Shown here piece after piece: positions 36,848 to 52,827 of a stretch of 64,000 nt of DNA. Below the pieces are notes generated by a model. That model ran no database searches, had not been told where the DNA came from, and was given only the letters and a program-made list of their open reading frames with translations. A program made the position numbers and the translations under genes. The DNA lies in NCBI GenBank assembly GCA_030616605.1, contig JAUWWY010000001.1, positions 132,251-196,250 on the forward strand, written 5' to 3'. This DNA comes from a bacterium (GTDB lineage: Bacteria > Patescibacteriota > Minisyncoccia > Minisyncoccales > CG1-02-41-26). Each line of letters opens with the position of its first letter. Position 1 is the first letter of the stretch.

Positions 36848-36885
36848 ACCAAAAAATCGCCAAGAAGGCGATTTTTTGGTAATTA
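36848..36885. terminator. T-P module copy 1 (14-bp bidirectional hairpin plus TGGTAATTA)
   Basis: ACCAAAAAATCGCC-aagaa-GGCGATTTTTTGGT. Confidence 0.75.
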
Positions 36886-37217
36886 AAAAAGAAAAGGGGG
36901 AAGCACACTTGGTAGGTACCAGCAGTATGCTTCCCCTTAATTCGGAGACTCTCGAGAACCCGCTTAAGAGAGAGGTATTGCACTGTCGACTTCACAGAAG
37001 CTGGCGCCTCTGCTTCGTTGTCTCCCTCTTATTCTACACACTTAAGAGATTCTCCAGGGCGCTTTTCACAACCTTAGGGTTGTTACTTTCACAAGAGTCA
37101 GACGACCGGGATTCGAACCCAACTTCTCCAACCTTCAGGAACGGCTTTGGACTACGTCCAAATTCCCCAAAGACTTAACGGAGCGCTTACCAGAAGCTCG
37201 CCTTTTTTCCGAACCCT
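36886..37217 (-). ncRNA. unclassified GC-rich structured RNA candidate (about 330 nt)
   Basis: About 50% GC within an AT-rich background. Minus-strand TTGACA (37252-37247) with an AAATAT -10. Minus-strand terminator GGGGAAGCA..TGCTTCCCC plus CTTTTCTTTTTT. Dense nested helices. The plus-strand ORF is not protein-like. Confidence 0.45.
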
Positions 37218-37258
37218 AAATCTATATTTATTCAGAAACTATAATTTGTCAAGTAGGT

Positions 37259-37397
37259 TCTAATGTTGTCCACGACTCCCAGTATCAAAAATTCCATCGC
37301 TGGGTGATTTTTTATTTTAACTTGACTTTCAAGTAGAAAAGGTGATAGTTTGAAATTAGTAAAGGTCGATTAAAAAATAATTAAAAAAAATAAAAAT
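37259..37397 (+). promoter_or_regulatory. upstream module U, copy A (terminator-like hairpin, promoter, 46-nt 5'UTR)
   Basis: TTGACT (37322)-N18-TAGTTT with a TG extension. 64 nt (37321-37384) are identical to 38530-38593. Confidence 0.7.
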
Positions 37398-38336
37398 ATG
37401 AAAAAATTACTAATAGGATTAATAATAGCGGCCTTTTTAGTGGCATCGGTGGGAATAGTGATGGCAAAAGATACCCAGAATAATGGACAACCATTCAAGG
37501 AGCTATGGGATGCTATAAATGAGATACGGAATCAAACAACATCTCTCTGGGATGCTATAACCAATATTGAGTTAATACCCGGACCACAGGGTCCTCAAGG
37601 CGAACAAGGTCCAGAAGGTCCACAAGGACCAAAAGGAGATAAAGGTGACAAAGGAGATACTGGAGCAATAGGTCCACAAGGAGAACTAGGACCAGAAGGG
37701 ACATGCAGTTGTCCATTTACAATAGAAGAATATCAGAGCCTTGTATCAAGAGTTGAGGTACTTGAAAATGCTTTTGGTTTTAAGTGGGAAGGAGATAATG
37801 TTGAACCCTGGCTTCATGATAATTATCAAGTATTTGATCCAACCAAGACAATAAGCAGATGTGGTTCTCCGGGTGTATGGAATTGTCCGCATGAAACCTT
37901 TGCAACATCTGATGGAAATATTACACTATTTGATTCAGGACCAAAACATGCAGACACACGGTATCAGGGAGACGGCATGAAATTCTGGTTAGAAGATATA
38001 CAAGTATTACCAGGAGCTGAATATGTGGTTGAGTTCTATATATCAGACCTTGATGCACACGGTGAAGGAAATCTTAAATCATATACACCTGGATGGACAT
38101 TGTATGTAGTAGAAGGTAATACTGTTTTAGAAACTCTTAGTGAACCATGGGGAACAAAAAGATGCAATGATTGTAATCCAGATCCAAATTCATTAGGAGA
38201 AAGGATGCTCACATTTACGCCATCACATGACAAGATTAGTTTCTACTTTGTCCATTCTTATGGATCTAGCCAATCTTCTTCAAGCATATATCATGTAAAG
38301 ATGGCATTGGACTATTTCTATGTAACAGTAAAGTGA
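37398..38336 (+). CDS. secreted collagen-like triple-helix repeat protein
   Basis: Signal anchor, then 13 G-X-Y triplets [40 protein letters not shown] (37581-37700), then a globular Cys-containing C-terminus. Confidence 0.8.
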
Positions 38337-38378
38337 AATAGCTGATATGTTAATAACATATGCAAATAATGTTATAGC

Positions 38379-38414
38379 GCAGATAAACGATATCCCGCAG
38401 ATAAACGATATCCC
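38379..38414 (+). repeat. perfect 18-bp tandem duplication
   Basis: GCAGATAAACGATATCCC occurs twice. The palindrome ATATGTTA-A-TAACATAT lies at 38345-38361. Confidence 0.8.
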
Positions 38415-38467
38415 TTAGAAGTTCTTAGTCATACAATAAGTGAATGAAATTTTAGTCTACGAGAGGC

Positions 38468-38606
38468 TCTAATATTGTCCAAGTCCCAGAAGTCAACAAA
38501 AAACCCATCTCTGGGCAGTTTTTTATTAGCTTGACTTTCAAGTAGAAAAGGTGATAGTTTGAAATTAGTAAAGGTCGATTAAAAAATAATTAATAAAAAT
38601 AAAAAT
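38468..38606 (+). promoter_or_regulatory. upstream module U, copy B
   Basis: Same as copy A: TTGACT at 38531, TAGTTT at 38555. Confidence 0.7.
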
Positions 38607-39926
38607 ATGAAAAAAATATTTTTGTTTGGAATATTATTAGTAGTGATATTATCAGTTGCTATTGTTGGAGTAAAAGCAATAACAGCAGAAAACGGTACTT
38701 GTGTTATCATACCTAACCAGGGTTCTAATGCAGAACATTTAGGACAGGGTGTAGAAAACCAAGCAGGTAGTGTTTGTGATGCAACTGCAGATGGTGGTTG
38801 TGGAGCTTGTGTTGAACAATGTATTCAGTTCAGGAAGATAAAAAACTCATTTGGCTGTGATTTATGTGGAGGAGATGGCTTCTGTAATCCAATGTGTGCA
38901 GCTGGAGAGGATCCTGAAGTGGATCCTGATTGTATCGTATGTGTAGATAATGATGAAGATGGTTATGATGCAATAACTCCAATCTGTCCAACAGGTGATG
39001 ATTGTAATGATAATAATGCTAATGTATATCCTGGAGCAACTGAAGTTTGTGATGGAGTAGATAATGATTGTGATTCTAGTGTAGATGAGGATTATATAGA
39101 AACTTCTACAAGCTGTGGTGTTGGAGAATGTTCAGCTAATGGTTTATTGCAATGTATTGCTGGAAGTGAAGTAGATTCTTGTACAGCTGGTACTCCTAGT
39201 GCAGAAGTTTGTGACGGTCTAGATAATGATTGTGATGATTTAATAGATGAGAATTTGGGTAGCACAACATGTGGAATAGGAAAGTGTCAAGTTACCATAC
39301 AGAATTGTATTGGGGGTGTAGTACAAACTTGTATGCAAGGAAGTTCAACACCCGAAGTCTGTATTGATGGAATTATAAGCCCAGGAGAATGGGACCCTGC
39401 AGATACCATAGGGTTAGTGTTAGACTTGACAGTTAATGTACCTGAAGGAGGAACAACGCCAGCAAGATTATATGTAATGAATGATGCCGCTAATTTATAT
39501 CTTGCTCTGCGATTTGAACGCACTGTGGCTGATCCAGGAAATTCCTTGTCTTTTGAGTTTGATAATGACAATGATGGAATAAGGGAAGAAGGAGATGACG
39601 CAATCGTGTACAATGCAGCATCTGGCTTTTATGATGACTTCCGGATGCTACACGATGGCAGATGGGGCGGACCTAAAGATATAGCTTATGGCGGCACCAG
39701 TGATGGGGAAGGAGCCTTCTTAAATGATGGAACATATAGTGTTTACGAAATGTCGCATCCGCTTGACAGCGCAGATGACCTGCATGACTTTTCTCTGAGC
39801 CAAGGATATACTATCGGCTTTTATTTTCATCTAAGGATGATAGGGCCTGGTGGGGTATGGCCAGAGGATTATGGCGAGACTTATTACCCATCATATGGAA
39901 ATTACATGCAATTCACAGTAAATTAA
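38607..39926 (+). CDS. secreted Cys-rich protein with MopE-type putative metal-binding repeats and a C-terminal beta-sandwich (CBM9/DOMON-like) domain
   Basis: Repeats of the form DCNDNNANVYPGATEVCDGVDNDCD and EVCDGLDNDCDDLIDE. Confidence 0.6.
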   Translation: MKKIFLFGILLVVILSVAIVGVKAITAENGTCVIIPNQGSNAEHLGQGVENQAGSVCDATADGGCGACVEQCIQFRKIKNSFGCDLCGGDGFCNPMCAAGEDPEVDPDCIVCVDNDEDGYDAITPICPTGDDCNDNNANVYPGATEVCDGVDNDCDSSVDEDYIETSTSCGVGECSANGLLQCIAGSEVDSCTAGTPSAEVCDGLDNDCDDLIDENLGSTTCGIGKCQVTIQNCIGGVVQTCMQGSSTPEVCIDGIISPGEWDPADTIGLVLDLTVNVPEGGTTPARLYVMNDAANLYLALRFERTVADPGNSLSFEFDNDNDGIREEGDDAIVYNAASGFYDDFRMLHDGRWGGPKDIAYGGTSDGEGAFLNDGTYSVYEMSHPLDSADDLHDFSLSQGYTIGFYFHLRMIGPGGVWPEDYGETYYPSYGNYMQFTVN

Positions 39927-39970
39927 GAATTGATTTGGATAGAGATATACCAATTAAATGAACATAAAAT

Positions 39971-40065
39971 AAAGACTTATCGTCGGTAAATTCGTTATTT
40001 GAAAATTTCGAACCTGCCACAATTTAGCCCCGATATTCATCGGGGCTAAATAGTTTAGATTGAAC
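39971..40065 (+). repeat. downstream module D, copy 1 (gene-end relic plus terminator)
   Basis: About 90% identical to 43419-43513. Terminator TTTAGCCCCGAT-attc-ATCGGGGCTAAA at 40023-40050. Confidence 0.75.
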
Positions 40066-40095
40066 ATCGCCAAGAGGGCGATTTTTTGGTAAAGT
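40066..40095 (+). promoter_or_regulatory. T-P module copy 2
   Basis: ATCGCC-aagag-GGCGAT-T6, then TGGTAAAGT. The ATG lies 6 nt after the -10. Confidence 0.65.
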
Positions 40096-40101
40096 AAATC
40101 A

Positions 40102-41229
40102 ATGGAACCATTAGCTTCAAAAATCAGACCAAAGACCTTGAAAGAATTCGTGGGTCAGAGTCATTTAGTTGGCGAAGGAAAACCTTTGAATGTTGCCATA
40201 AAGCAAAAGCATCTGTTTTCGTTTGTTTTTTGGGGTCCGCCGGGAACCGGAAAAACAACTCTGGCGAAAATATATGCCAAAAGTTTGAATGCCAAGCTTT
40301 ACGAATTATCTGCGGTTTCCGCCGGCAAAGCAGATATCAGGAAAATAATTGAGGAAGATACGAAAAACTATCCCAAAGTTTTATTCTTGGACGAAATTCA
40401 CCGCTTCAATAAGGCCCAGCAGGATTTTCTGCTTCCTTATGTGGAAAGAGGGGATATGACTTTAATCGGAGCCACTACGGAAAATCCAAGTTTTGAAATA
40501 ATTGCGCCTTTGCTTTCACGCTGCAGGATTTTTGTTTTGTACGAACTTTCAGATAAAGAGATGGAAACCATCATTAAACGAACCAAATTCAAATTAGACA
40601 AGAAATCAATTGACTGGCTGATTAATATGGCAAACGGAGACGCAAGGCAGGCCATTACCATGCTTGAAAACACGAACGAACTTTATAAGAAGATCACTGT
40701 GGAAAATCTAAAGAACGCCTTGCAGTCAAAGTTCTTAAGATACGATAAAGTAGGGGAGGAACATTATAATACTATTTCAGCTTTTATTAAAAGCATGAGA
40801 GCAAGCCAGTCGGATGCGGCTTTATATTATTTAGCGCGGATGATTGATTCTGGCGAAAATCCCAAATTCATAGCAAGGAGAATGGTTATTTTCGCTTCAG
40901 AGGACATAGGCTTGGCCCAGCCCACAGCTTTGGTGGTAGCTAACGATGTTTTTAGAGCCGTGGAAATAATCGGGTTGCCCGAGTGTGGCATTAACTTGGC
41001 GCACGGAGTAGTTTATCTGTGCCAATGCAAAAAAGACAGAAGCGCCTACGAGGCCTATATGAAAGCTATGGAAGATGTTAAAAAATACGGAAACTTATCC
41101 ATACCTTTGCATTTGCGGAATCCGGAAACAAAACTAATGAAAGAACTGAATTACGGCAAAGGATATGAAAAATACTCCAAGGAATCTTTTCTGCCCGATA
41201 AGTTGAAAGGAAAGAAATACTTACAGTAA
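40102..41229 (+). CDS. rarA: replication-associated recombination protein A (MgsA/RarA AAA+ ATPase), short form
   Basis: FWGPPGTGKTTLA, LFLDEIHRFNKAQQD, and MgsA_C-like ISAFIKSMRASQSDAALYYL. Confidence 0.8.
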   Translation: MEPLASKIRPKTLKEFVGQSHLVGEGKPLNVAIKQKHLFSFVFWGPPGTGKTTLAKIYAKSLNAKLYELSAVSAGKADIRKIIEEDTKNYPKVLFLDEIHRFNKAQQDFLLPYVERGDMTLIGATTENPSFEIIAPLLSRCRIFVLYELSDKEMETIIKRTKFKLDKKSIDWLINMANGDARQAITMLENTNELYKKITVENLKNALQSKFLRYDKVGEEHYNTISAFIKSMRASQSDAALYYLARMIDSGENPKFIARRMVIFASEDIGLAQPTALVVANDVFRAVEIIGLPECGINLAHGVVYLCQCKKDRSAYEAYMKAMEDVKKYGNLSIPLHLRNPETKLMKELNYGKGYEKYSKESFLPDKLKGKKYLQ

Positions 41230-41242
41230 CTTTTACCGAAAA

Positions 41243-41261
41243 GGCGATTTTTTGGTAGAAT
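41243..41261 (+). promoter_or_regulatory. T-P module copy 3 (left arm lost)
   Basis: GGCGATTTTTTGGTAGAAT. The ATG lies 11 nt after the -10. Confidence 0.55.
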
Positions 41262-41272
41262 AAGAAAAGAGT

Positions 41273-41668
41273 ATGAAAGCAAAAGTAAAGAATTCAATTT
41301 TATTAATTGAAGACGACCCATTTTTAATAGATATTTATAAGAAAAAGTTTGAAAGTGCTGGTTTTAAAATAAGGGTAGCAGAAAAAGGAAGAAAAGCTCT
41401 GAGGATGTTAAAAGAAGAAATACCCGATCTTATAATTTTAGATATTGTTTTACCAGGAATTTTTGGTTGGGAGGTTCTAAGGAAAATAAGAAAAAATCCA
41501 AAATTAAAAGGATTAAAAATAATAATTTTGAGCAATTTGGGACAAAAAGAAGAAATAGAAAAAGGCTTAAAGTTAGGAGCAACCAAATATTTGATAAAAG
41601 CTCATTATACTCCAAGTGAAGTAGTAAAAGAGATAGAAAAGATATTAAAAATTTCAAAGGCCAAATAA
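41273..41668 (+). CDS. single-domain response regulator (CheY-like receiver)
   Basis: LLIEDD, DLIILDIVLPG and ILSNLGQ..K. Confidence 0.8.
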   Translation: MKAKVKNSILLIEDDPFLIDIYKKKFESAGFKIRVAEKGRKALRMLKEEIPDLIILDIVLPGIFGWEVLRKIRKNPKLKGLKIIILSNLGQKEEIEKGLKLGATKYLIKAHYTPSEVVKEIEKILKISKAK

Positions 41669-41694
41669 ATTGTGACCTGTGCTGGGTAATTTTT

Positions 41695-41724
41695 ATCGCC
41701 AACTAGGCGATTTTTTGATAGAAT
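41695..41724 (+). promoter_or_regulatory. T-P module copy 4
   Basis: ATCGCC-aacta-GGCGAT-T6-GATAGAAT. The -10 overlaps the ORF-track ATG at 41723. Confidence 0.65.
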
Positions 41725-41731
41725 GGAAAAT

Positions 41732-42325
41732 ATGATAAAAGCAATCATTTTTGATTATGGAGGCGTTTTGACAAAGGAGGTGTTTTTCTATAAGTTTGCA
41801 AAAATACACGCATCCAGGTTTGGAGTGGAGCAAAAAGAGTTCAATGAATTGATTAAAGAAAATTGGTCTAAAGCAAAAACAAATAAAATTAGCTCTAAAA
41901 CATTTTGGTTAAACTTGTCAAAATTTCTGAAAGTAGACAGTAAAGTTCTAAGAAAAGATATTATAAATTTCTTTGGCTTTAGATATGAAATTTTAGACCT
42001 GATAAGGAAGCTAAAAGAGAAGTACAAAATAGGGTTATTAACCAACCAAATAGAAGACTGGTTAGAGGGGGTTATAGAAAAGCACAAATTGAACGAAGTT
42101 TTTGATATTATAATAACTTCATACCGAACCAAGAAAGCTAAGCCAGACATTGCTATTTTCCAAGAAGCAATTGAAGGGTTGAGAGTTAAACCAGACGAGT
42201 GTATTTTTATAGACGACCTAGAAAATAATACCTTGGCAGCAAGCCGATTAGGTATGAAAGTGATTCTATTTAAGAATACTAAACAATTAATATCTGATTT
42301 AAAAAGAATGGGTATTAAAATCTAA
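41732..42325 (+). CDS. HAD-superfamily hydrolase (subfamily IA-like)
   Basis: IIFDYGGVL motif I, LLTN, and K..PD..IF..DD. Start placed at the ATG 7 nt after TAGAAT (leaderless). The alternative start is 41723. Confidence 0.7.
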   Translation: MIKAIIFDYGGVLTKEVFFYKFAKIHASRFGVEQKEFNELIKENWSKAKTNKISSKTFWLNLSKFLKVDSKVLRKDIINFFGFRYEILDLIRKLKEKYKIGLLTNQIEDWLEGVIEKHKLNEVFDIIITSYRTKKAKPDIAIFQEAIEGLRVKPDECIFIDDLENNTLAASRLGMKVILFKNTKQLISDLKRMGIKI

Positions 42326-42330
42326 ATTAA

Positions 42331-42429
42331 GCCCCATCGCTGGGCAGTTTTTATTTAACTTGACTTTCGAACAGAAAAGATGTTAATTTGAGATTAGTAA
42401 AGGTCGATTTTAACTATTGGTGAAAAAAT
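42331..42429 (+). promoter_or_regulatory. upstream module U, copy C (diverged)
   Basis: GCCCCATCGCTGGGCAGTTTTTATTTAACTTGACTTTCGAACAGAAAAGATGTTAATTTGAGATTAGTAAAGGTCGATT. Confidence 0.6.
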
Positions 42430-43437
42430 ATGAAAAGAAAATTAATTTTAGGTTTGATTATAGCTATAATTTTAGCTACTCTACCCGCATCAACGCTTGC
42501 CTGGGGTTCAGCAACCCATGCATATCTTACTGAAAAACTTGGAAATAAAGAAGATGTTCTGAATCAGCAAGAGATGTATGGAGCAACATTGATAGATGTG
42601 TTTAATTTTATGTTTGGTGTTCCGTATCAGCCATATTTATGGACAAAAACGCATTATGGATTTATGACATTAGTTGACGCAGCAGAACCCGAAGAAGCAG
42701 CACTTGCTTATGGATTTGTAAGTCATAACGAGGCTTGGGGAGCAGATTACACTGCACATATTAATGCTTTAACTCTTGAAGGAGATAAAGGATATGTAAT
42801 TACAAAAGGTGAAGAATTAGCTCCTTTGTTAGTGTCTACTATAATAGCATCTTTAGAAGAACTTTTAGGTGCCCCTCTACCGGACCCTCTACCACCAGTG
42901 TATGAAGAATTAATTGGAGAATTATCTTTAGGATTAGCTCATATTGGTATAGAGAGTGCAGTTGATTATTTGGTAAGTCAAAATGAGGATAGAAAAATTG
43001 GATATAAAATGTTAACTTCAGCACAAGAGAGAGATGATTCTGTTCCATTGTTGTTAAGTGAAGCATATGCAGAAGGTTTGGCAGAGGCAACTGGAATGTC
43101 ACTTGAAGTCGCAAATGGAATAATTTATGAAACTGAAAGTGAATTTCAAGCACAGATGATCAGTTATGGTGCAGCATTAACACAAGAAAATGCATTGGAG
43201 CTATTGGCTGAGCAAGGTACAGAATTAGCTATAATGATTTTAGAAGCAGAACATGGAATTGAGGTACCATCAGAAAGATACGGGGAGATATTTGCATTAG
43301 TAAAAAACTTAATGGCATCCACTTTGCTTGAAGCTATAGAAGTAGTTGAAGATGATTACTCTGAAGAATTAGAAGCAACACAAAAGTATGTAAAGAAACA
43401 ATTGAATGCAAATAAGATAAAGACTTATCGTCAGTAA
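42430..43437 (+). CDS. secreted protein with a zinc phospholipase C / S1-P1 nuclease-like N-terminus
   Basis: Signal peptide cleavage ..STLA|WGSATHAYL would expose an N-terminal Trp, as in that superfamily. The rest is acidic and helical. Confidence 0.4.
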   Translation: MKRKLILGLIIAIILATLPASTLAWGSATHAYLTEKLGNKEDVLNQQEMYGATLIDVFNFMFGVPYQPYLWTKTHYGFMTLVDAAEPEEAALAYGFVSHNEAWGADYTAHINALTLEGDKGYVITKGEELAPLLVSTIIASLEELLGAPLPDPLPPVYEELIGELSLGLAHIGIESAVDYLVSQNEDRKIGYKMLTSAQERDDSVPLLLSEAYAEGLAEATGMSLEVANGIIYETESEFQAQMISYGAALTQENALELLAEQGTELAIMILEAEHGIEVPSERYGEIFALVKNLMASTLLEAIEVVEDDYSEELEATQKYVKKQLNANKIKTYRQ

Positions 43438-43513
43438 ATTGATTATTTGAAAATTTCAAACCTGCCACTATTTAGCCCCGATACTCATCGGGGCTAAATT
43501 GTTTAGATTGGAC
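43419..43513 (+). repeat. downstream module D, copy 2
   Basis: Begins inside the last 6 codons of the gene. Terminator at 43471-43498. Confidence 0.75.
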
Positions 43514-43543
43514 CTCGCCAAGAAAACGATTTTTTGATAGAAT
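43514..43543 (+). promoter_or_regulatory. T-P module copy 5 (degenerate hairpin)
   Basis: CTCGCCaagaaaACGATTTTTTGATAGAAT. The ATG lies 6 nt after the -10. Confidence 0.6.
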
Positions 43544-43549
43544 GGAAAC

Positions 43550-44125
43550 ATGAATAATGTTGAGATTGAAATCCAAGTTAATATTGAAAATAGTAAATCA
43601 TTAATAGATTTTTTGGAAAAAAATGGTCAATTTAAATCAGAAGAACATCAAAAGGATGAGTATTTTTCTCCAACTCATCGCAATTTTATTGAAGTCCGTC
43701 CAGTAAAAGAGTGGTTAAGGTTAAGAGATTCGGATGGTAAATATTCTATAAACTATAAGAACTGGTATTTTGATGAAGATGGGAAAAGTCGTCATTGTGA
43801 TGAATACGAAACAAAAGTAGAAGATTTGGCTCAAATCAAAAAGATATTAGAGGTTCTTAATTTTAAATCTATTGTTAAGGTTGATAAAATAAGAAAAACT
43901 TGGATATATAAAGATTATGAAATTGCTATAGATTCTGTGAAAGAATTGGGGGATTTTGTAGAGATTGAATATATCAATAAAGATGAAAAAGTAGACCCAA
44001 AAAAGGTTACAGAAGAAATGATTAATTTTCTTAAAAGTATTGGTTGTGGAAAAATAAAAAGAAACTATGTAGGTTATCCATTTCAGTTGTTATTTCCAGA
44101 AGAAGTAAAATTTGAGGAACAATAA
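43550..44125 (+). CDS. CYTH-domain protein (class IV adenylate cyclase / triphosphatase family)
   Basis: EIEIQV start, LRLRD, and a tunnel-fold pattern ending GDFVEIEY. Confidence 0.8.
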   Translation: MNNVEIEIQVNIENSKSLIDFLEKNGQFKSEEHQKDEYFSPTHRNFIEVRPVKEWLRLRDSDGKYSINYKNWYFDEDGKSRHCDEYETKVEDLAQIKKILEVLNFKSIVKVDKIRKTWIYKDYEIAIDSVKELGDFVEIEYINKDEKVDPKKVTEEMINFLKSIGCGKIKRNYVGYPFQLLFPEEVKFEEQ

Positions 44126-44155
44126 ATCGCCAAGATGGCGATTTTTTGGTAGAAT
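44126..44155 (+). promoter_or_regulatory. T-P module copy 6
   Basis: ATCGCC-aagat-GGCGAT-T6-GGTAGAAT. The ATG lies 7 nt after the -10. Confidence 0.65.
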
Positions 44156-44162
44156 GAGATAT

Positions 44163-44862: not shown

Positions 44863-44994
44863 ATGAAAAAGAAAACCAAAACCAGAGAATGGACAGTCTA
44901 TAGAAGCTCAATAACTGGTAGATTTGTTACGAAAAAACATGCCAAACAAAAACCAAAAACTACCGAGAAAGAAAGAGTAAAAATACGCAAATAG
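44863..44994 (+). CDS. 43-aa basic protein (not in the ORF track)
   Basis: MKKKTKTREWTVYRSSITGRFVTKKHAKQKPKTTEKERVKIRK, preceded by a diverged U-like module at 44781-44862. Confidence 0.3.
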   Translation: MKKKTKTREWTVYRSSITGRFVTKKHAKQKPKTTEKERVKIRK

Positions 44995-45017
44995 CAACTA
45001 TTTTTTGTCCTTGAGAT

Positions 45018-45036
45018 GGCGATTTTTTGGTAGAAT
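45018..45036 (+). promoter_or_regulatory. T-P module copy 7 (left arm lost)
   Basis: GGCGATTTTTTGGTAGAAT. The ATG lies 6 nt after the -10. Confidence 0.6.
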
Positions 45037-45042
45037 GAGAAT

Positions 45043-45501: not shown

Positions 45502-45608
45502 ATATAATTTATCCTTAAATATGGGTTGCTGGAATAGTATGTATTAACTTGGTATAATAAGAATAAAAGGTCGGCTATATTTTGGTCACATTAAAAACGA
45601 AATTAAAA

Positions 45609-45764
45609 ATGAATACAAAAAATATTGGAGTAATTATTTTGGTTATAGTATTGATTGCTTTGGCTTGTTATTTATATTGGGGTCTAACAGAATGTAAGAC
45701 TGCGGCAACAGAATTGGGAACACAATTACAAGAGTGTGGAGAAGCTTTAACCAACCTTCAGTAG
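45609..45764 (+). CDS. small single-TM protein
   Basis: MNTKNIGVIILVIVLIALACYLYWG. TATAAT at 45553. Confidence 0.35.
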   Translation: MNTKNIGVIILVIVLIALACYLYWGLTECKTAATELGTQLQECGEALTNLQ

Positions 45765-45934
45765 GCGTGTGCTCCTTATCTTCCCGTAGAGTAATTAAAA
45801 ATTTTAATAAGAATCTCCGATTAAAGGGTCACTAGATTACTATGTGACCTTTTTTTTAAAGTCATCGATTGACAAATAGCAGTTTTTATGCTAATCTATT
45901 TTTAGTACCTAAACTTAATAAAAAGGAGAAAGAC

Positions 45935-46228
45935 ATGCCGAATATCATGATATGCGGGTTCCAACCTAAAAGGGCAGAGGGGTTAAGAACCAGTATCGAA
46001 ATAATTATGCGGAATATGAGCTTGGGTGACGAAGCGTTAACGTCGATCGTGGATATGGAAGCCAAGTCCTGTGACGGGACAAGGACCCCCATGCCTTATC
46101 TCCGCATCTGTTCCACTGATGAGGGTGAAATCCAAAAAATCATCAATACCTTCAAGGAGGAGGGGATAAAAGTCGACGTTGAGTGGCTGGTCCTGAACGG
46201 ATTCATCCCTGCTAACAAAATGACCTGA
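45935..46228 (+). CDS. hypothetical protein (GC-rich islet)
   Basis: SD AAAAGGAG 8 nt upstream. TTGACA-N17-TAATCT promoter. Terminator AAAGGCGTTC..GAACGCCTTT at about 46281-46308. Confidence 0.5.
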   Translation: MPNIMICGFQPKRAEGLRTSIEIIMRNMSLGDEALTSIVDMEAKSCDGTRTPMPYLRICSTDEGEIQKIINTFKEEGIKVDVEWLVLNGFIPANKMT

Positions 46229-46374
46229 CAGCTGGCATCTGAGTAAACTGAGGTACAGCTGGTCCCTCACTCTCACCAATAAAGGCGTTCTTATGAACGC
46301 CTTTTTCTTTGTCCTTTCATGAGCTAAGATAAGGGTAGTTCAATAAAAATAAAAAATAATAGAAGGACAGAACA

Positions 46375-46725
46375 ATGACAGATTTTTTACTTTCCCGGAA
46401 ATACTCAGGACCCCTGAAGGTTATCATTCACCCGCTCGGGAACGAAGAGCCCTTCAGTTTTACACCTCATTTCAGGGACTCAACACTCTTTGACTATGTC
46501 GGTCATGCCTGTGCCTGTATTTTCACAAACATGACCACTCAGTTGTCGGTGTGCACGAGACCCGAAGATTGGGAGGTGGTTCGGTTTGCTCCCGACGAGA
46601 ACATATTGGAGGTCTTGCAGGTAGGAGGCGAAGAGCTGGAGATTGAAATAGACGACCCACAGCGTTTATTATATTTCCTTAATACCATGGCATTCCTGCT
46701 ATTAGCAAAACCTCAATCGCAGTGA
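46375..46725 (+). CDS. hypothetical protein (GC-rich islet)
   Basis: 116 aa at about 47% GC. Terminator AAAACCCTAGGG..CCCTAGGGTTTT downstream. Confidence 0.5.
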   Translation: MTDFLLSRKYSGPLKVIIHPLGNEEPFSFTPHFRDSTLFDYVGHACACIFTNMTTQLSVCTRPEDWEVVRFAPDENILEVLQVGGEELEIEIDDPQRLLYFLNTMAFLLLAKPQSQ

Positions 46726-46867
46726 GGGAAGCCGTGATATATGGCTTGAGTTTTTAAAAACCCTAGGGATAACCCTAGGGTTTTAGTTACGCTGTAATTG
46801 ACAGGAATATACCTACATGCTATAAACAATACAGTTCTTGGAAAATTAAAATCAGAAAGGAATAGTC

Positions 46868-47161
46868 ATGAAAGAAGTGACAATTCAGAAAATCGATAGC
46901 ATCCGTGCTACCTACAACGCTACCTACGACACTTTCCTGATTCCCATTATGATTGGGACTGCTGCCTGTTTAGTTGTAATACCTTTAGTTATAACGTTCG
47001 GCATACTTCATGTTATTAACATGGGAGTGGCAGGACTCATTACTGCGTGTCTTATCGTTCTCGGCGGTCTCATCCTATACCTTGGCAACAGGCATTTCCA
47101 GCGGCTGAGAAACCGTTTCCATCTTTCTATAGAAAATCTTTCTTTAGAAAATGATGCTTGA
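46868..47161 (+). CDS. small membrane protein (GC-rich islet)
   Basis: Two TM segments. SD GAAAGGAA. Confidence 0.45.
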   Translation: MKEVTIQKIDSIRATYNATYDTFLIPIMIGTAACLVVIPLVITFGILHVINMGVAGLITACLIVLGGLILYLGNRHFQRLRNRFHLSIENLSLENDA

Positions 47162-47319
47162 CCCTTCTGTTCATCACCAAAAAAAGCCGAAAGTCTAATA
47201 AGACAAGTAGGCTTTTTTCATATAAAGGATTTTGTTTGGACTTGACTTTTTAATATTAATCTGGTATTATTAAAAAACTGTTCTTTAAATCTTAAATAAG
47301 CCAATAAAAGGAGAAAACG

Positions 47320-47913
47320 ATGAGAAAGATAATCATGTGTGTGGTTGTTTTCCTGTTTGTCCATGTCCAATTGGCCTCGGCACAGGGACTGGAACTTTCC
47401 GAAGCAACTACCAATGTCGGTAAAAGCGCATTCATCTCCGGGTTTGACATTACTCTAAAATTCAAAGGAGGTGGCAACCTGTTAGACGTGACAGGAAATG
47501 ATCAAAGAGTTCGTGCTACTTATCTTTGGGATTTTCCCTCGTCTATCAATGCAGGTATTTGCGGAGGTTTTTTCAAAAACATGCCTTTTGTAGGACCCTA
47601 TGTAACCTTTGCTCCATTCAGCTTCCTGTCTTTTCTTGAGTGGGTTGGCTGGAGTGGAGGAAAGCCGGATAATCCCGGGACGGAAATTAACTTCTTTTTT
47701 CATGACACAGCTGTTTTTCTAAATATTAAGAGTTTTACTCTCAGCTATGTTCATGAAAATTTCATGGAAGAGGAAGTATCGATTCCCGGAGTAACTTATG
47801 AAACGCCGATAAATAACGACTTTGAGTTTTCTATAGGCGTAGATTATAAGTTCAGTAAGGACTCGAAAGACGAACCCCTTTTCCATATGGGAGTTTCATA
47901 TTCCCCAGAATAA
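47320..47913 (+). CDS. secreted protein of unknown function (GC-rich islet)
   Basis: Signal peptide ..HVQLASA|QG. SD AAAAGGAG. Alternating beta-strand-like pattern. Confidence 0.5.
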   Translation: MRKIIMCVVVFLFVHVQLASAQGLELSEATTNVGKSAFISGFDITLKFKGGGNLLDVTGNDQRVRATYLWDFPSSINAGICGGFFKNMPFVGPYVTFAPFSFLSFLEWVGWSGGKPDNPGTEINFFFHDTAVFLNIKSFTLSYVHENFMEEEVSIPGVTYETPINNDFEFSIGVDYKFSKDSKDEPLFHMGVSYSPE

Positions 47914-48000
47914 CCGAATATCCTACATTGTTCATATAGAGGGATAAGATTTAATTCTTGTCCCTCTTTTTATTTAGAGAAATATTGGTAAAATTGAAAT

Positions 48001-48852
48001 ATGATAGAAAATATTGTTATATCCAATCCAGAAGAATTAGAAAAATCAAAAAAATCAATTTCTGAGGCTGGACCTGACAAGCTTCATGTTTTAGCTGACT
48101 TTGATAGAACTCTAACAACAGCTTTTATTGAGGGGAAAAGCGTGCCCTCTCTTATTTCGCTTTTACGTGATGGGAATTATTTAACGCCTGATTATGCTCA
48201 AAAAGCCAATAAACTTTACGCTAAATACCATCCAATTGAAATTGACCCGAAAATTCCATTAGAAAAAAAGAAGGATGCAATGCTTGAATGGTGGACAACT
48301 CACTCTAATTTGTTGATTAAATCGGGATTAAACAAAAAGGATTTAAAAAAACTTGTTGAATCCAAAAAGATTAAATTTAGAGATGGATTTGCAGGTTTTA
48401 TTGATTTTTTAAAAAGCTATGAGATTCCTTTAGTTATTATGTCCTCAAGTGGATTGGGTAATAATCTTATTTCAATGTTTTTAGAAAAACAAGAAAAGTT
48501 ATACGATAACATTTATATTATTTCTAATTCCTATGAATGGGACAAAAACAATAATGCAGTTGGTGTCAAGAAGCCGATTATTCATGCGATGAACAAAGAT
48601 GAAACTATTATCAAGGATTTTTCAGTTTTTGAGCTACTTAAGAATAGAAAAAATGTTTTATTATTAGGAGATAACTTGAATGACATTGGGATGGTAAAGG
48701 GCTTTGATTATGATAATTTGATTAAAATAGGATTCCTCAATGAAAATATGGAGGAGAACTTGGAATATTATAAAAATAATTACGATGTCATAATTTTAGA
48801 TGATTCTTCTATGGATTTTGTTAATGGGTTATTAAAAGAAATGATAAGATAA
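48001..48852 (+). CDS. HAD-type 5'-nucleotidase (UMPH-1/cytosolic 5'-nucleotidase III-like)
   Basis: LADFDRTLT motif I, IMSSSG and LLLGDNLNDIGM. Confidence 0.6.
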   Translation: MIENIVISNPEELEKSKKSISEAGPDKLHVLADFDRTLTTAFIEGKSVPSLISLLRDGNYLTPDYAQKANKLYAKYHPIEIDPKIPLEKKKDAMLEWWTTHSNLLIKSGLNKKDLKKLVESKKIKFRDGFAGFIDFLKSYEIPLVIMSSSGLGNNLISMFLEKQEKLYDNIYIISNSYEWDKNNNAVGVKKPIIHAMNKDETIIKDFSVFELLKNRKNVLLLGDNLNDIGMVKGFDYDNLIKIGFLNENMEENLEYYKNNYDVIILDDSSMDFVNGLLKEMIR

Positions 48853-48891
48853 TTTTCTTGACAAACCTTTTTAGAAACGCATAATGAAGAT

Positions 48892-49198
48892 GTTCTTTCA
48901 AAATACAGCATCGAACTTGTTAGCTAGGCGTCGGACTTTTACCCCCGAGCCAAAAGTGTGAGTGGGCCTACCTTTCTTCTACCTGCCAAGCAAAGGTCTC
49001 ACAACTATCGCTCTCTGTATTGCTCTCTGCGAAAATAAACGGCCAATACAGGAGGGCCTGATTCTTATATACGGTGGTCATCCGCATACCTCGACCATAC
49101 AGGAACCATACAGGCAATCTGAAAGCCTCCTGAGCGTGTAGCTAACAAGTTCACATTACTTCTATAGTCCACCTTTATATATTAAGGTGGACTTTTCT
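48892..49198 (+). ncRNA. multi-copy structured RNA family, copy 1 (about 307 nt)
   Basis: Promoter TTGACA (48858)-N16-CATAAT (48880). P1 is 48913-48926 paired with 49139-49152. Terminator at 49166-49198. Confidence 0.7.
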
Positions 49199-49240
49199 CT
49201 TTACTCTTGACAATTCTTTATAATAGTGTATAATAAAGAT

Positions 49241-49498
49241 GTTCTTTTAAAATATAGTATAGAATCTGTTAGCTGGGTGTCGGACTTTTGCCCCCGAAAA
49301 AAGTGTGAGTGGGTCTACCTTTTCAGCTCTCTAAGGTCTCACACACCTCTGTTGTCCAAACCTACCCCTTTTGACACAAAAATGACCCAAACAGGAGGGT
49401 CTAGCACTCCCAAGGCACAGACAATCTGAAAGCCTCCTGGACGTCTAGCTAACAACTTTTCTCTAGTCCACCTTTTATATATCAGGTGGACTTTTTTT
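49241..49498 (+). ncRNA. multi-copy structured RNA family, copy 2 (about 258 nt)
   Basis: Promoter TTGACA (49207)-N16-TATAAT (49229). Same block order as copy 1. Terminator at 49465-49498. Confidence 0.7.
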
Positions 49499-49509
49499 GT
49501 GGTCAAACC

Positions 49510-49538
49510 TCGCTAAAAAGGCATCTTTTTGATAGAAT
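49510..49538 (+). promoter_or_regulatory. T-P module copy 8 (diverged)
   Basis: CTCGCTAAAAAGGCATCTTTTTGATAGAAT. The ATG lies 12 nt after the -10. Confidence 0.5.
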
Positions 49539-49550
49539 AAAGTAAATCAT

Positions 49551-51014
49551 ATGTTGAAAACCACAACCAAACAAAAAGAATATGTTTTTATGTGGAGTCA
49601 AACTCCAATAATGCCAAGTTCTTGGGGTACTGCTTTTTCTCTTAAAAAGGGACGTGATATTTATAGAAAAGGAGGAATTATTTTTAGTTATTATGACGGA
49701 AAAATAATTACAACTTACATACCAAAACAAGATTTGGAAATTCGAAAAAACATAGACAGCATAAAATACTTAAGTCCAAAATTTTTTAAAAAATATCAAT
49801 TGAGGTATAAAAAAGAAAAAGCTCAATGGTGGAATTGGATTAGAAAGATAGAGAGAAAAGATTATTCCAAAATTTCAATAAATCAACTAAAAAAAGACCA
49901 TTTGAAATTTCAAGAATACATGCGTGATGCTCTTGCTTATTTTGGGAGCACCAGGCCCGAATTTACTTATCAAGCAGAGCAGAAATTAGAAAAGATACTT
50001 AAAAAATATTTTAAAGACAACTGGGGAAATGTTTTTACTGTTTTAGTTGATTCATTAAAACTAGATAATGTTCAAAAAGAACATTTAGAAAGCTTAAAGT
50101 TATTAACTGCCAAAATTACAAAAGAAAAGCTTTTGATTCATACTTCTAAATTTCCTTGGCTTGTTTCTGATTATCTTGAAGAAAAAAAAGCTTTATCTTT
50201 TTTAAGAAAGATTTTTATCAAAGAAAAAGGGAGTTACAAAGAAGAAAAGAACAGATTAAAAAATGAAAAAAGAAAATTAAAACAAAAACAGGAAAAGATA
50301 TATAAAAAATTAAATGAAAAAGATGAAAAAGAAGCAAGATATTTAGCATCTTTTTTGCAAATACAGTCAGTAGAACGAATGAATATTAAATCTTATTGGG
50401 CAGGATGTTATTATTTAGCCAGAAATATGTGGTATAAAATTGCTGAAATCCTTGACTTAAAAGTAAGTGATATTTTAAAGTTTCTAACTCCATTAGAAAT
50501 TCAACAACTATTGAGTGGTAAATATAAAGAAGATATCAGCGAGCTTATCAAATTGCGCAAAAAATCCTATGCTATTAGTTATGAAGGAGGGGAAAAAGTA
50601 GAAATTTTTACTTATAAAGAAGCAGATAAATTATTTAAAGAAAGGATAAAAAAACCTTCTACTAGAGATAAAATAATTAAAGGACAATCCGCCTCCTTAG
50701 GAATTTATAAAGGAAAGGTTAGAAAAATAATAGTAGGTGATTTAGAGATATTACAAGATAGCATTAAGAAGTTTAAAAAGGGTGAGGTATTAGTAACTAG
50801 TATGACTCAACCTAATATGATGGTAATTGCCAGAAAAGCCGGGGCAATTGTCGCTGATGAGGGTGGGATTACGTCTCATGCAGCCATTATCTCCCGGGAA
50901 CTTAAAATTCCCTGTATTGTTGGCTGTTTAAAAACTATGCAAGTCCTCAATGACGGCGATTTAGTGGAAGTAGATGCAAATAAAGGAATTATTAAGATAT
51001 TAAAAAAGAAATAA
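49551..51014 (+). CDS. PEP-utilising enzyme mobile (swivel phosphohistidine) domain protein
   Basis: C-terminal GGITSHAAIISRELKIPCIVG. The roughly 380-aa N-terminal region is unassigned. Confidence 0.7.
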   Translation: MLKTTTKQKEYVFMWSQTPIMPSSWGTAFSLKKGRDIYRKGGIIFSYYDGKIITTYIPKQDLEIRKNIDSIKYLSPKFFKKYQLRYKKEKAQWWNWIRKIERKDYSKISINQLKKDHLKFQEYMRDALAYFGSTRPEFTYQAEQKLEKILKKYFKDNWGNVFTVLVDSLKLDNVQKEHLESLKLLTAKITKEKLLIHTSKFPWLVSDYLEEKKALSFLRKIFIKEKGSYKEEKNRLKNEKRKLKQKQEKIYKKLNEKDEKEARYLASFLQIQSVERMNIKSYWAGCYYLARNMWYKIAEILDLKVSDILKFLTPLEIQQLLSGKYKEDISELIKLRKKSYAISYEGGEKVEIFTYKEADKLFKERIKKPSTRDKIIKGQSASLGIYKGKVRKIIVGDLEILQDSIKKFKKGEVLVTSMTQPNMMVIARKAGAIVADEGGITSHAAIISRELKIPCIVGCLKTMQVLNDGDLVEVDANKGIIKILKKK

Positions 51015-51030
51015 GAAAAGCCCGAACATG

Positions 51031-51507
51031 TTAAATATTCGGGCTTTTAGTGTTAAGAGAAAGGACTCTTAGAAAAGAGTTGACAATTTCCCTTGCAACC
51101 TGCTGGAGTACTTTTGAGCATTCCTGGTAGGCGGCAAGGTCTTTTTTGAATGGATTGGGCACTCCACCTGCACCTTTGTTAGCAACAAGGATTTTTTCGA
51201 GCGGAATACCCAAGTATGTAAGGATATTGAGTTGTTCTTCCTCCATACACACTATTAAGTCATAATCTATAAGATTGAGGTCTCCAAACCAACGACTGCG
51301 GTGATTTCGGAGGTTAAGACCAAGCTCAACCATACAGGTTATTGAATGTTCATTTGCGGAATTGCCTTTTGTTTCCTGAAGAGTTCCAGCGCTTTCCACT
51401 TTAACACCCTGGATGCCTTTTTCTTGAAGTTCTTTTTTAAGTAAAACTTCAAGCATCGGGCTTCTACAGGTGTTTCCTTTACATAGACACAATAGGTTCT
51501 GGACCAT
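51031..51507 (-). CDS. low-molecular-weight protein-tyrosine phosphatase / ArsC-like
   Basis: CLCKGNTCRSP (CX5R-S) loop and a DP motif. Strong SD GAAAGGAGG. GC above background. Confidence 0.8.
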   Translation of the reverse strand: MVQNLLCLCKGNTCRSPMLEVLLKKELQEKGIQGVKVESAGTLQETKGNSANEHSITCMVELGLNLRNHRSRWFGDLNLIDYDLIVCMEEEQLNILTYLGIPLEKILVANKGAGGVPNPFKKDLAAYQECSKVLQQVAREIVNSFLRVLSLNTKSPNI

Positions 51508-51646
51508 TAGTGCCTCCTTTCAGCGGAATATATTTTTGTTAAGGAACTTGATACCTCAATTATAACATAATTATTCAGAAATGTCAATTAAGTTAAAATC
51601 TCAATAGTTTTCTTGACAAATCTTTTTAGAAACGCATAATAAAGAT

Positions 51647-51936
51647 GTTCTTTCAAAATTTAGCATTGAACTTGTTAGTTAGGCGTCGGACTTTCTTCCT
51701 CCGGCTAAAAGTGTGAGTGGGCCTACCTTTCTTCTACCAGCTAAAGAAAGGTCTCACAACTATCGCTCTCTGTACGCTCTCTGCGAAAATAAACGGCCAA
51801 TACAGGAGGGCCCTCTGTTCTGGACTCCTATGCGGTAAACCCCAGCTAACAGGCAATCTGAAAGCCTCCTGAGCGTGTAGCTAACAAGTTCACATTACTT
51901 CTATAGTCCACCTTTATATATTAAGGTGGACTTTTT
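51647..51936 (+). ncRNA. multi-copy structured RNA family, copy 3 (about 290 nt)
   Basis: Promoter TTGACA (51613)-N16-CATAAT (51635). Near-identical to copy 1 except at three variable sites. Terminator at 51905-51936. Confidence 0.7.
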
Positions 51937-52020
51937 CTATTGAACTGAAATTTGACAAATCTTTTATTATCTATTATAATCTTGGTAGAAATTCTTTAAT
52001 AACTTAATAAAAGGAAAATC

Positions 52021-52785
52021 ATGAATGAAACGATTGTAATGATTCATGGTATGTGGGGTGGCGGATGGTGCTGGGAGAACTACCGGAATTTTTTTGAGCA
52101 GAGAGGTTATCATTGTATTACTCCTACCTTACGTTTTCACGATATGGCTCCGAATGAAGTTCCTAATTCTCAATTAGGAACTTTCAGTCTATTGGATTAC
52201 GCCAAAGACCTTGAAAGAGAAATCCATGAACTTGACGTGACTCCTGTCCTAATGGGGCACTCCATGGGTGGACTTCTTGCCCAAATTCTTGCAAGTCGAG
52301 GATTAGGGAAAAGTCTTGTCCTCTTAAATCCATCAGTGCCCTATGGGATTATGGCTCTAAAACTTTCAGTGATAAGAAGTTTCTGGAGTATCCTTACAAA
52401 ATGGGGCTTTTGGAAAAAGCCAATGCGACAGACTTTTAAAGAAGCGGTTTATTCAATAATGCAGCTATTGACTGTCGAAGACCAAAAAGAGCTTTTTGAA
52501 AAATTCGTTTACGAGTCTGGTCGGGCAGGAGCTGAAATCGGGTTCTGGTTTCTTGATTCAAAAGCAGCAACAAAAGTTGATGAATTAAAAATTACCTGTC
52601 CTGTTTTGATTGTTGCTGGAAGCAAAGACAGGATTACTCCGGTAAAGGTTACCCGAAAAGTTGCGGATAAATATAGGTTTGTCTCAACTTACAGGGAATT
52701 TCCAAACCATGCCCATTGGCTCATTGAAGAACCAGACTGGCAGGAAATAGCAAGCTATATCTCTATTTGGTTGAATCGGGTGTAA
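52021..52785 (+). CDS. alpha/beta-fold hydrolase
   Basis: GHSMGG nucleophile elbow, with D and H near the C-terminus. Has its own TTGACA-N17-TATAAT promoter. Confidence 0.8.
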   Translation: MNETIVMIHGMWGGGWCWENYRNFFEQRGYHCITPTLRFHDMAPNEVPNSQLGTFSLLDYAKDLEREIHELDVTPVLMGHSMGGLLAQILASRGLGKSLVLLNPSVPYGIMALKLSVIRSFWSILTKWGFWKKPMRQTFKEAVYSIMQLLTVEDQKELFEKFVYESGRAGAEIGFWFLDSKAATKVDELKITCPVLIVAGSKDRITPVKVTRKVADKYRFVSTYREFPNHAHWLIEEPDWQEIASYISIWLNRV

Positions 52786-52799
52786 GGTGTAATTAAATA

Positions 52800-52827
52800 A
52801 AAAATCGCCAAAAAATTGGCGATTTTT
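52800..52827. terminator. T-P family hairpin copy 9 (terminator only)
   Basis: AAAAATCGCCAA-aaaa-TTGGCGATTTTT. Confidence 0.7.

Follow-up and report, generated by a model that had tools for sequence, protein, structure and literature searches.

We analyze here a 64,000-nucleotide (nt) stretch of bacterial DNA (contig JAUWWY010000001.1 of GenBank assembly GCA_030616605.1; hereafter the window), in which a short intergenic module recurs in front of unrelated genes. Positions are those of the window, and the module copies, the related promoters and the genes they serve all lie on the plus strand. The window has a G+C content of ~33% and comes from a Nealsonbacteria-like member of the Patescibacteria; many homologues of its RarA, 87-98% identical to it, bear the source names Nealsonbacteria, Gribaldobacteria or 'Patescibacteria group'. 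In its full form the module consists of ATCGCC-N5-GGCGAT-T6, an extended -10 element and, a few nucleotides further on, the ATG of a gene. Nine copies are present, all between 36.8 and 52.8 kilobases (kb), and none lies in the remaining 48 kb; by simple arithmetic, nine copies would fall within one quarter of the window by chance with a probability of 0.25^9, or ~4e-6. Pfam assigns the served genes to RarA/MgsA, receiver, HAD, CYTH, Maf, NUDIX and PEP-utilizer mobile-domain families, in agreement with the identities proposed in a first-pass annotation of this DNA, which had called the genes unrelated. The module-free rest of the window holds core genes (L10, L7/L12, ClpB, MraW, PBP, DnaB, RecR, CysRS and DnaX, and further MurC-like, TyrRS and AsnRS/AspRS genes).

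The first copy is a symmetric hairpin, A6-ATCGCC-AAGAA-GGCGAT-T6 (36850-36877; -20.3 kcal/mol, z -8.1), which resembles a terminator in both directions. It lies 36 nt past the stop codon of a cohesin-like gene (35933-36820) and is followed by a degenerate TGGTAATTA with no clear promoter. The first-pass annotation had listed nine sites, all of which are present; the position given for this one, 36848, belongs to the A-run flank, and the motif itself starts at 36856. A full module (40066-40104) precedes rarA/mgsA (40102-41229), with the hairpin at 40066-40082, the T-run at 40082-40087, TG at 40087-40088, the -10 hexamer TAAAGT at 40090-40095 and a 6-nt gap before the ATG at 40102. The next copy (41243-41275) retains the right arm alone (GGCGATTTTTT) and forms no hairpin; GGCGAT-T6 runs into TGGTAGAAT with its -10 at 41256-41261, and an 11-nt gap separates this from the ATG of the receiver-domain gene (41273-41668). 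Another full module (41695-41734; hairpin 41695-41711, T-run 41711-41716, TGATAGAAT, -10 at 41719-41724) serves the HAD hydrolase gene, which begins with the ATG at 41732 after a 7-nt gap and extends to 42325.

The CYTH gene (ATG at 43550, to 44125) is served by a degraded, non-folding copy, CTCGCC-AAGAA-AACGAT-T6 (43514-43552), with TGATAGAAT, a -10 at 43538-43543 and a 6-nt gap. At the first base past the CYTH stop codon begins the full module of the Maf gene (44126-44165; hairpin 44126-44142, T-run 44142-44147, TGGTAGAAT, -10 at 44150-44155), whose ATG at 44163 follows a 7-nt gap, so that 37 nt separate the CYTH stop from the start of Maf (which extends to 44741). The NUDIX gene (ATG at 45043, to 45501) follows a second right-arm-only copy (45018-45045; GGCGAT-T6, TGGTAGAAT, -10 at 45031-45036, 6-nt gap), and the gene for the PEP-utilizer mobile-domain protein (ATG at 49551, to 51014) follows a degraded one, CTCGCT-AAAAA-GGCATC-T5 (49509-49553; TGATAGAAT, -10 at 49533-49538, 12-nt gap). 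The last copy, with an 8-nt loop, is A6-ATCGCC-N8-GGCGAT-T6 (52798-52828, the left arm starting at 52804; -18.5 kcal/mol). It is again terminator-like in both directions and lies 3' of an alpha/beta-hydrolase gene (52021-52785); on its own 3' side is a canonical TTGACA-N16-TATAAT promoter (52837-52864) and no extended -10. A related hairpin-less promoter of the same geometry is found at 47986-48003, where TGGTAAAAT and a 6-nt gap precede the ATG at 48001 of a pyrimidine 5'-nucleotidase gene.

Mismatch-free copies of ATCGCC-N5-GGCGAT-T6 therefore number four (36856, 40066, 41695 and 44126), where 0.01 would be expected by chance, and a repeat finder groups module copies independently (families D1 and D6). 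Folding is possible in five of the nine copies, with -8.4 kcal/mol at 40066 and 41695 and -13.7 at 44126 in addition to the two values above, and T6 lies 3' of the stem in every folding copy (T5-T7 in related loci). Several features noted in the first-pass annotation are found as described: the loss or degradation of the left arm in some copies; the extended -10, TG(G/A)TAGAAT or, upstream of rarA, TGGTAAAGT, directly after seven of the nine (40087, 41253, 41716, 43535, 44147, 45028 and 49530); the five ATGs 6 or 7 nt past the -10; and the left arm at -35 distance, since a consensus scan places TCGCCA 17 nt 5' of TAGAAT at 41696, 43515 and 44127. For rarA and the receiver, CYTH and NUDIX genes, the module's ATG is also the first possible start of the open reading frame (ORF). 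A 141-nt repeat, 88% identical between its copies at 39951-40091 and 43399-43539 (plus strand), ends inside two modules; it holds a strong 13-base-pair (bp) hairpin, ATTTAGCCCCGAT-loop-ATCGGGGCTAAAT, that lacks a good U-run and one example of which lies at 43470-43499, 5' of the CYTH module.

The module can be followed into other genomes. An exact scan for the 19-mer GGCGATTTTTTGRTAGAAT, with one genome per GTDB species, found it in at least 117 stretches, mostly from metagenome-assembled genomes (MAGs) of Patescibacteria; thus, the module belongs to a large clade and not to the window locus alone. Carriers among the matches listed are Nealsonbacteria, Paceibacteria/Parcubacteria, Minisyncoccales, Staskawiczbacteria, Gribaldobacteria, Doudnabacteria and MAGs labeled Saccharibacteria. 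In most of the 131 matches listed, the left arm (A/G)TCGCC lies exactly 5 nt upstream and an ATG within a few bases downstream. A phage origin was considered and rejected, the true module being present in only one of three viral-contig matches. A search of the modules against Rfam gave no match at gathering thresholds or at E<=1.

For a sample independent of the motif, we used 66 loci (461 kb) around homologues of rarA and maf, fetched without reference to the module; loci from related genomes are labeled L plus a number. A search of these loci for the promoter half (T5 or more, then G[AG]TAnA[AT]T) gave 61 distinct sites, of which ~52 have the hairpin or a variant of it. Forty-two of the 61 were aligned without gaps, and the 19 whose register or loop length differs were omitted. 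Of the cells in this alignment, which was ascertained by the promoter, 87.7% are paired; sliding the partner by 1-3 columns lowers the figure to 25-56%. The second pair is U.G in 24 of the 42 and U-A in 14, and GGCGG is the commonest right arm in the motif-blind sample. Among the matches listed from the GGCGATTTTTTGRTAGAAT search, which fixes the right arm, internal changes in the left arm comprise 12 of C to T, compatible with G.U pairing in the sense RNA, and none of T to C or G to A, which would lose the sense-strand pair and keep the opposite-strand one. The loop is variable: about ten copies have a second hairpin nested between the arms, insertions of 8-19 nt leave arm complementarity intact, and a lineage represented by L151 and L152 has an 8-nt loop with compensatory TCGTC/GACGA arms; CCGCC/GGCGG forms are also present. 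The wobble asymmetry and the variable loops together point to a sense-strand RNA hairpin beside a U-run, as in an intrinsic terminator, rather than to an operator in duplex DNA. Judged by these substitution patterns, the hairpin is evidently under selection as a sense-strand RNA structure.

Pairing does not account for everything in the left arm. At -35, 38 of 42 sites retain T despite a partner that is mostly G, with which C would pair more stably, and 70 of 99 have A as the first base of the loop (-30). The retained T argues for a second constraint on the left arm, so that pairing would be combined with partial -35 recognition. This double constraint is itself an incomplete explanation, as there are stems with no promoter (36856 and 52804) and loops that shift the stem away from -35. 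The simpler proposal that a -35 role alone explains the fixed stem is weakened by the same promoter-less stems and by the 8-nt loop of L151 and L152. In L176 (4750-4835), L012, L068 and L079, a second hairpin (CCCTCAC...GTGAGGG or GCCCTGA...GAGGGG) lies between the T-run and TAGAAT; this variant junction is in effect a structured promoter spacer.

The promoter half is equally regular. In the motif-blind sample TG is invariant at -15/-14 and the next base is free (TGG 41, TGA 14, TGT 13), and the -10 hexamers are TAGAAT in 41 of 94, TAAAAT in 14 and relatives of these, with TATAAT in 3. A fixed TG, a free base and a TAnnnT hexamer is the pattern of a predicted extended -10 promoter. For 161 modules, we tallied where, past the -10 hexamer, an ORF of 50 or more amino acids has its first start: 69 of these starts fell at 6, 7, 8 and 9 nt (33, 13, 13 and 10, respectively) over a flat background. 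Start codons 4-10 nt after the -10 in the same modules are ATG in 70 cases and GTG in 2. Among 136 gene calls of the source databases in eight related loci, -10-like hexamers peak at the 6-nt gap (16, compared with a background of ~3 per position), and at gaps of 5-9 nt a -10-like hexamer precedes 36 of the 136 genes and a Shine-Dalgarno (SD)-like motif 18. The leaderless messenger RNAs (mRNAs) proposed in the first-pass annotation are thus supported by both the 6-nt peak and the preference for ATG, which make a transcription start at or beside the start codon likely.

Promoter and start also occur without the hairpin. In front of rarA in L094, the hairpin is absent and GGTAGAAT-N6-ATG is kept inside the end of the preceding ORF, and hairpin-less TATAAT-N6-ATG and TGGTAAAAT-N6-ATG starts are found as well. 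Ordinary AAAGGAG SD sites precede other genes of the window, and GGUAGAAU is therefore unlikely to be the ribosome-binding sequence of this organism. A published survey detected the anti-SD motif in no more than 48% of the 16S rRNAs of Parcubacteria (PMC9297842), which fits heavy use of SD-independent initiation. A SigH-type promoter (RWAGGAXXT-N14-HGAAT) was tried as an alternative assignment; its spacing does not fit.

Two other arrangements of gene starts were seen alongside the module. One gene is shared by L012 (2710-3203) and L079 (4164-4656) at 93% nucleotide identity, with homology that stops at the ATG; in one genome it has a module and a leaderless start, and in the other an SD-type start, AAAGGAGAAAT-ATG. 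A second class of mRNA has a repeated 100-nt leader (37310-37409, 38519-38618 and 42348-42447, plus strand), made of TTGACT-N16-GATAGT followed by AGTAAAGGTCGATT and ~30 A-rich nucleotides, which precedes secreted collagen-like and MopE-like proteins. This leader class is present in many related loci (L021, L030, L063, L071, L098 and L103), and AAAGGTC 5-15 nt past the -10 recurs in Patescibacteria loci as an alternative to the leaderless layout.

A recurring hairpin after stop codons could simply be the usual terminator of these genomes, an outcome that the first-pass annotation had named as one that would undo its reading. In the motif-blind 461 kb there are 178 terminator-like hairpins, 60 of the ATCGCC type and 118 with other stems. 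An extended -10 is fused to 42 of the 60 (70%) and to 21 of the 118 (18%). Counted as distinct sites, 43 of 62 ATCGCC-type hairpins are fused by the strict pattern, plus several with TTTTCTGTTAGAAT. The stems of the other terminators vary widely and are mostly longer (AAGCCC.../...GGGCTT is one of many). The difference in promoter fusion and the diversity of the other stems rule out a house terminator, and the fixed stem instead belongs to a promoter-bearing module.

We consider it probable that the module is a bifunctional intergenic junction of Nealsonbacteria-like Patescibacteria, combining a compact intrinsic terminator, an extended -10 promoter and a leaderless start. The transcript of the upstream gene would fold AUCGCC-N5-GGCG(A/G)U ahead of U6 and so form an intrinsic terminator. 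The same T-run would double as the upstream spacer of the extended -10 promoter TG(G/A)TAGAAT, while the left arm, as TCGCCA at -35, could offer sigma factor a partial contact. Transcription would start 6-9 nt past the -10, either on the first base of the ATG or no more than 1-3 nt away; the next gene would thus be made as a leaderless mRNA without an SD sequence. The outcome would be an autonomous single-gene transcription unit with ~37 nt from stop to start. Because such a terminator-promoter-ORF unit would be insulated from what lies upstream, it could be relocated or exchanged between genomes, as described for rarA below. The sequences themselves show the layout, the conserved pairing, the spacing, the clade-wide spread, the tie of this stem to the promoter and the horizontal exchange of the rarA unit; from the anatomy of the module and its statistics we infer that transcripts end in the U-run, where the next ones start and that these are translated without a leader.

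Several observations weigh against this explanation. Four of the nine window copies (41243, 43514, 45018 and 49509) gave no hairpin when folded and are promoter-only remnants, and two of the nine lack a promoter; as a correction to the first-pass annotation, only five of the nine copies are still predicted terminators. Two of the four hairpin-less copies keep GGCGA perfectly, for which pairing offers no explanation. At 40066 and 41695 the stem, of 6 bp, is weak (z ~-2.5), so that termination there may be partial. The left arm matches the -35 consensus at only four of six positions, as the first reading had also counted, and it has moved off -35 in whole lineages (L151 and L152, with their 8-nt loop). 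The uniformity of the stem over a broad range of species is beyond what termination and initiation explain. Finally, a 6-9-nt gap is also the usual spacing between SD and ATG, and the geometry is thus compatible with a ribosome-binding role of a non-SD kind.

The case for portability comes from rarA, which we compared in ten genomes (the window, L094, L118-L121 and L187-L190). A different gene adjoins rarA on each side in every one of the ten. The module precedes rarA in eight of the nine relatives, with an odd -10 (TAAAGT or TAGAGT; TAAACT in L189), a 6-nt gap and the ATG, and a second module follows the rarA stop in most of the genomes. Nucleotide homology to the window starts at 40063-40077, the left edge of the hairpin (exactly at 40066 in L119, L120, L144 and L188; at 40063 in L187 and L190), and ends at the rarA stop codon. 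The gene is 83-97% identical at the nucleotide level between genomes whose other shared genes are at 65-72%. Synonymous difference, taken as the share of differing codons among those for identical amino acids, is 19-23% for rarA in four of the genome pairs compared and 39% in a fifth, that of the window and L190; in the same pairs it is 48-58% for BipA, a DEAD helicase, Obg, a P-type ATPase and TyrRS. The low synonymous divergence of rarA relative to other genes, together with its changing neighbors, argues for horizontal exchange of a module-plus-rarA unit. These comparisons indicate that the unit, with its replication-associated recombination gene, has recently been exchanged between divergent genomes.

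Other junctions give a mixed picture. In L176 and L136 an extra gene occupies precisely the junction of CYTH stop and module, a module is present at ~12 of 53 maf orthologues, behind different upstream genes, and homology ends at modules in the pairs L012/L079, L081/L091 and L037/L052. Homology normally ends at gene boundaries, which is where modules sit, and the coincidence with modules is therefore weak evidence. Against portability as a general rule, the CYTH-module-Maf stretch aligns over its full length with L130 and L131 at 79% nucleotide identity, and the alignment with L132, at 77%, takes in the 3' end of CYTH together with the module and Maf; some junctions are thus inherited vertically. 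So far the clear transfer signature is confined to rarA, and the portable cassette boundary suggested in the first-pass annotation is supported for this unit, with its ten contexts, and not for the CYTH-Maf junction.

A further possibility, which we hold only tentatively and which extends the terminator-promoter explanation, is that the module is a recombination junction. It would serve as a short, near-identical block of homology, or as the site of an unknown recombinase, by which single module-flanked genes are swapped within and between genomes after DNA uptake, and the terminator and promoter would make each cassette expressible anywhere. The module-bounded rarA unit, the break of homology at the left arm, the low synonymous divergence of rarA, the extra gene in L176 and L136 and the three pairs whose homology ends at modules all speak for it. 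So do the uniform stem and the preference for TAGAAT over TATAAT, which resemble shared descent or homogenization, and the clustering of modules in the accessory-gene segment of the window, with none in core-gene segments. Set against these are the vertical CYTH-module-Maf junctions, the restriction of the clear signature to rarA, the general tendency of homology to break at gene boundaries and the length of the module, since 30 nt is near the lower limit for RecA-dependent exchange. Moreover, a Pfam scan of ~50 window ORFs (all those of at least 140 amino acids outside 35-54.5 kb and the main ORFs within) found no recombinase, integrase or transposase.

The junctions might even constitute an integrase-free gene-cassette system, in which terminator, promoter and leaderless ORF travel together and the near-identical 30-nt junctions offer portable homology to competent, DNA-scavenging Patescibacteria. 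Such junctions would allow single genes to be inserted, deleted and exchanged within and between genomes, as for rarA; we hold this, too, only tentatively. An integron cassette array was rejected, because the scanned window ORFs include no IntI and ATCGCC-N5-GGCGAT-T6-GGTAGAAT contains no attC cores (R''/L''...L'/R', GTTRRRY). A DNA uptake sequence is likewise ruled out, given that outside modules the 6-mers occur near the expected rate (GGCGAT 8 times, 7.0 expected; ATCGCC 7 times, 4.7 expected). In a reading related to the cassette system, RNA polymerase that is set free at the U-run might initiate again within a few bases downstream, which would couple neighboring genes without co-transcription.

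It is improbable that the module is instead a translation signal within polycistronic RNA, with no termination at all and with the U-run and GGUAGAAU acting as an S1-type or other non-SD enhancer 6-9 nt before the AUG. The SD-like spacing, the weak stems, the low rate of anti-SD detection in Parcubacteria (PMC9297842) and the known role of U-rich tracts as S1-binding enhancers would suit such a signal. However, all informative positions agree with the extended -10 consensus (a fixed TG, a free N and TAnnnT), the genome uses ordinary AAAGGAG sites elsewhere, the hairpin-less TATAAT-N6-ATG and TGGTAAAAT-N6-ATG starts share the geometry, and the near-exclusive use of ATG fits leaderless initiation.

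Slightly less probable still is an operator palindrome, bound over the -35 by a dimeric transcription factor that controls a regulon, with the RNA hairpin incidental. A perfect 6-N5-6 palindrome centered between -35 and -10 is a classic helix-turn-helix layout, and several of the served genes have a common theme of nucleotide house-cleaning (HAD, CYTH, Maf and NUDIX, with a 5'-nucleotidase and an HD protein nearby). Yet the commonest form, ATCGCC/GGCGGT, is asymmetric as DNA, internal changes are G.U-compatible on one strand only, the arms remain complementary around 8-19-nt insertions, and the hairpin at 36856 and 52804 has no promoter to control. Furthermore, the 83 proteins found directly after modules match 83 Pfam families, led by GNAT (5), methyltransferases (3) and HD (3), and this diversity, with the strand-asymmetric wobble and the variable loops, disfavors a regulon.

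Least probable of all is a selfish REP-like (repetitive extragenic palindromic) or MITE-like (miniature inverted-repeat transposable element) repeat, spread by a transposase and resembling a promoter and terminator by chance: the module is a short, palindromic, intergenic repeat with many clustered and partly degraded copies per genome, but the module sequence and the window genes show neither terminal inverted repeats nor target duplications apart from the hairpin itself, no GTAG head and no RAYT (REP-associated tyrosine transposase) or other transposase, the same sequence is found over a broad range of species instead of being species-specific, and its nucleotide-exact position relative to stop codons and ATGs is unlike random insertion.

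Several neighboring features of the window merit description in their own right. Four paralogous genes for structured non-coding RNAs of ~230-310 nt lie at 48849-49196, 49198-49496, 51604-51935 and 52828-53094 (plus strand). Each has a CTTGACA-N16-[CT]ATAAT promoter, a 19-bp closing helix (GAACTTGTTAGCTAGGCG / CGTGTAGCTAACAAGTTC), inner helices and its own terminator (AGTCCACC...GGTGGACTTTT), and the predicted consensus has 57 pairs; these paralogues have no match in Rfam and no copy in 1.3 megabases of related loci. An intein that includes a LAGLIDADG homing-endonuclease domain splits the clamp-loader gene dnaX (23819-26206, plus strand). From 41732 to 54209 extends a run of nucleotide house-cleaning and salvage genes, which includes HAD, CYTH, Maf, NUDIX, a pyrimidine 5'-nucleotidase (UMPH-1), an HD_4 protein and a 2-thiouracil desulfurase; relatives have similar collections of enzymes (NUDIX, CYTH, HAM1, HIT and HD) in different orders. 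Directly upstream of the module-rich segment, at 30050-36820, an ORF of 1749 amino acids is followed by dockerin-like and cohesin-like proteins, which suggests a putative cell-surface assembly.

Almost nothing is known of how transcription and translation start in the Candidate Phyla Radiation (CPR), because most of its members are uncultured. If the terminator-promoter explanation is right, about one quarter of the genes in a large part of the Paceibacteria/Parcubacteria would be leaderless and transcribed from extended -10 promoters, many of which would have their T-run in common with the preceding gene's terminator. This would offer a reason for the 48% anti-SD detection in Parcubacteria 16S rRNAs (PMC9297842). 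In practical terms, the module could be used by gene callers as a start-codon signal in Patescibacteria genomes, and it could serve as a compact, self-insulating expression part of ~37 nt. It also hints at a route by which tiny genomes may reshuffle and trade accessory genes singly.

Each component of the module is a known kind of element. Searches of the literature on leaderless mRNAs, promoters and terminators in Patescibacteria, CPR, Parcubacteria and Nealsonbacteria turned up no description of the whole, and the only CPR start-site set found was for Nanosynbacter. As far as we found, three things appear undescribed: the nucleotide-precise fusion, a sequence fixed over a broad range of species and the tie to a nomadic gene. 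Like ordinary intrinsic terminators, the module has a G+C-rich stem-loop and U6 just past a stop codon, with pairing kept through G.U and compensatory changes and, in some copies, an A-run that gives a two-way appearance. Unlike them, it has a stem of only 6 bp and a U-run shared with a promoter, and the stem is near-fixed (ATCGCC/GGCGR) over a broad range of species, whereas ordinary stems are free, including those in the same genomes. With extended -10 (TGn) sigma-70 promoters, including those with the Gram-positive '-16 region' TRTG, it shares TG at -15/-14, the free base, TAnnnT and the weak -35 that is typical alongside an extended -10; it differs in that a terminator hairpin occupies the -35 and spacer and that TAGAAT is preferred over TATAAT. 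As in the leaderless mRNAs of Actinobacteria/Mycobacterium, Deinococcus and archaea, the -10 is placed for a start on the AUG, an SD sequence is absent and the preference for AUG is strong; here, leaderless starts are predicted for Patescibacteria, for which we found no report, and they would be coupled nucleotide for nucleotide to the upstream terminator.

The closest parallels for the mobility of single genes lie elsewhere. Integron cassettes are also small, unrelated single genes, separated by a recurring imperfect palindrome and mobile between genomes, but attC sites are 57-141 nt long, compared with 30 nt for the module, which has no integrase and no R''/R' (GTTRRRY) cores and gives each gene its own promoter in place of a shared Pc. 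Correia elements are likewise short conserved intergenic repeats with possible promoter activity; the module is much shorter and lacks terminal repeats. The uptake-sequence pairs of Neisseria and Haemophilus resemble the module in using a fixed-sequence inverted repeat as a terminator, and differ in that the 6-mers of the module are not over-represented outside it. In 'minimal mobile elements', finally, genes are exchanged through recombination in conserved flanks after transformation, as may also be the case for genes bounded by the module.

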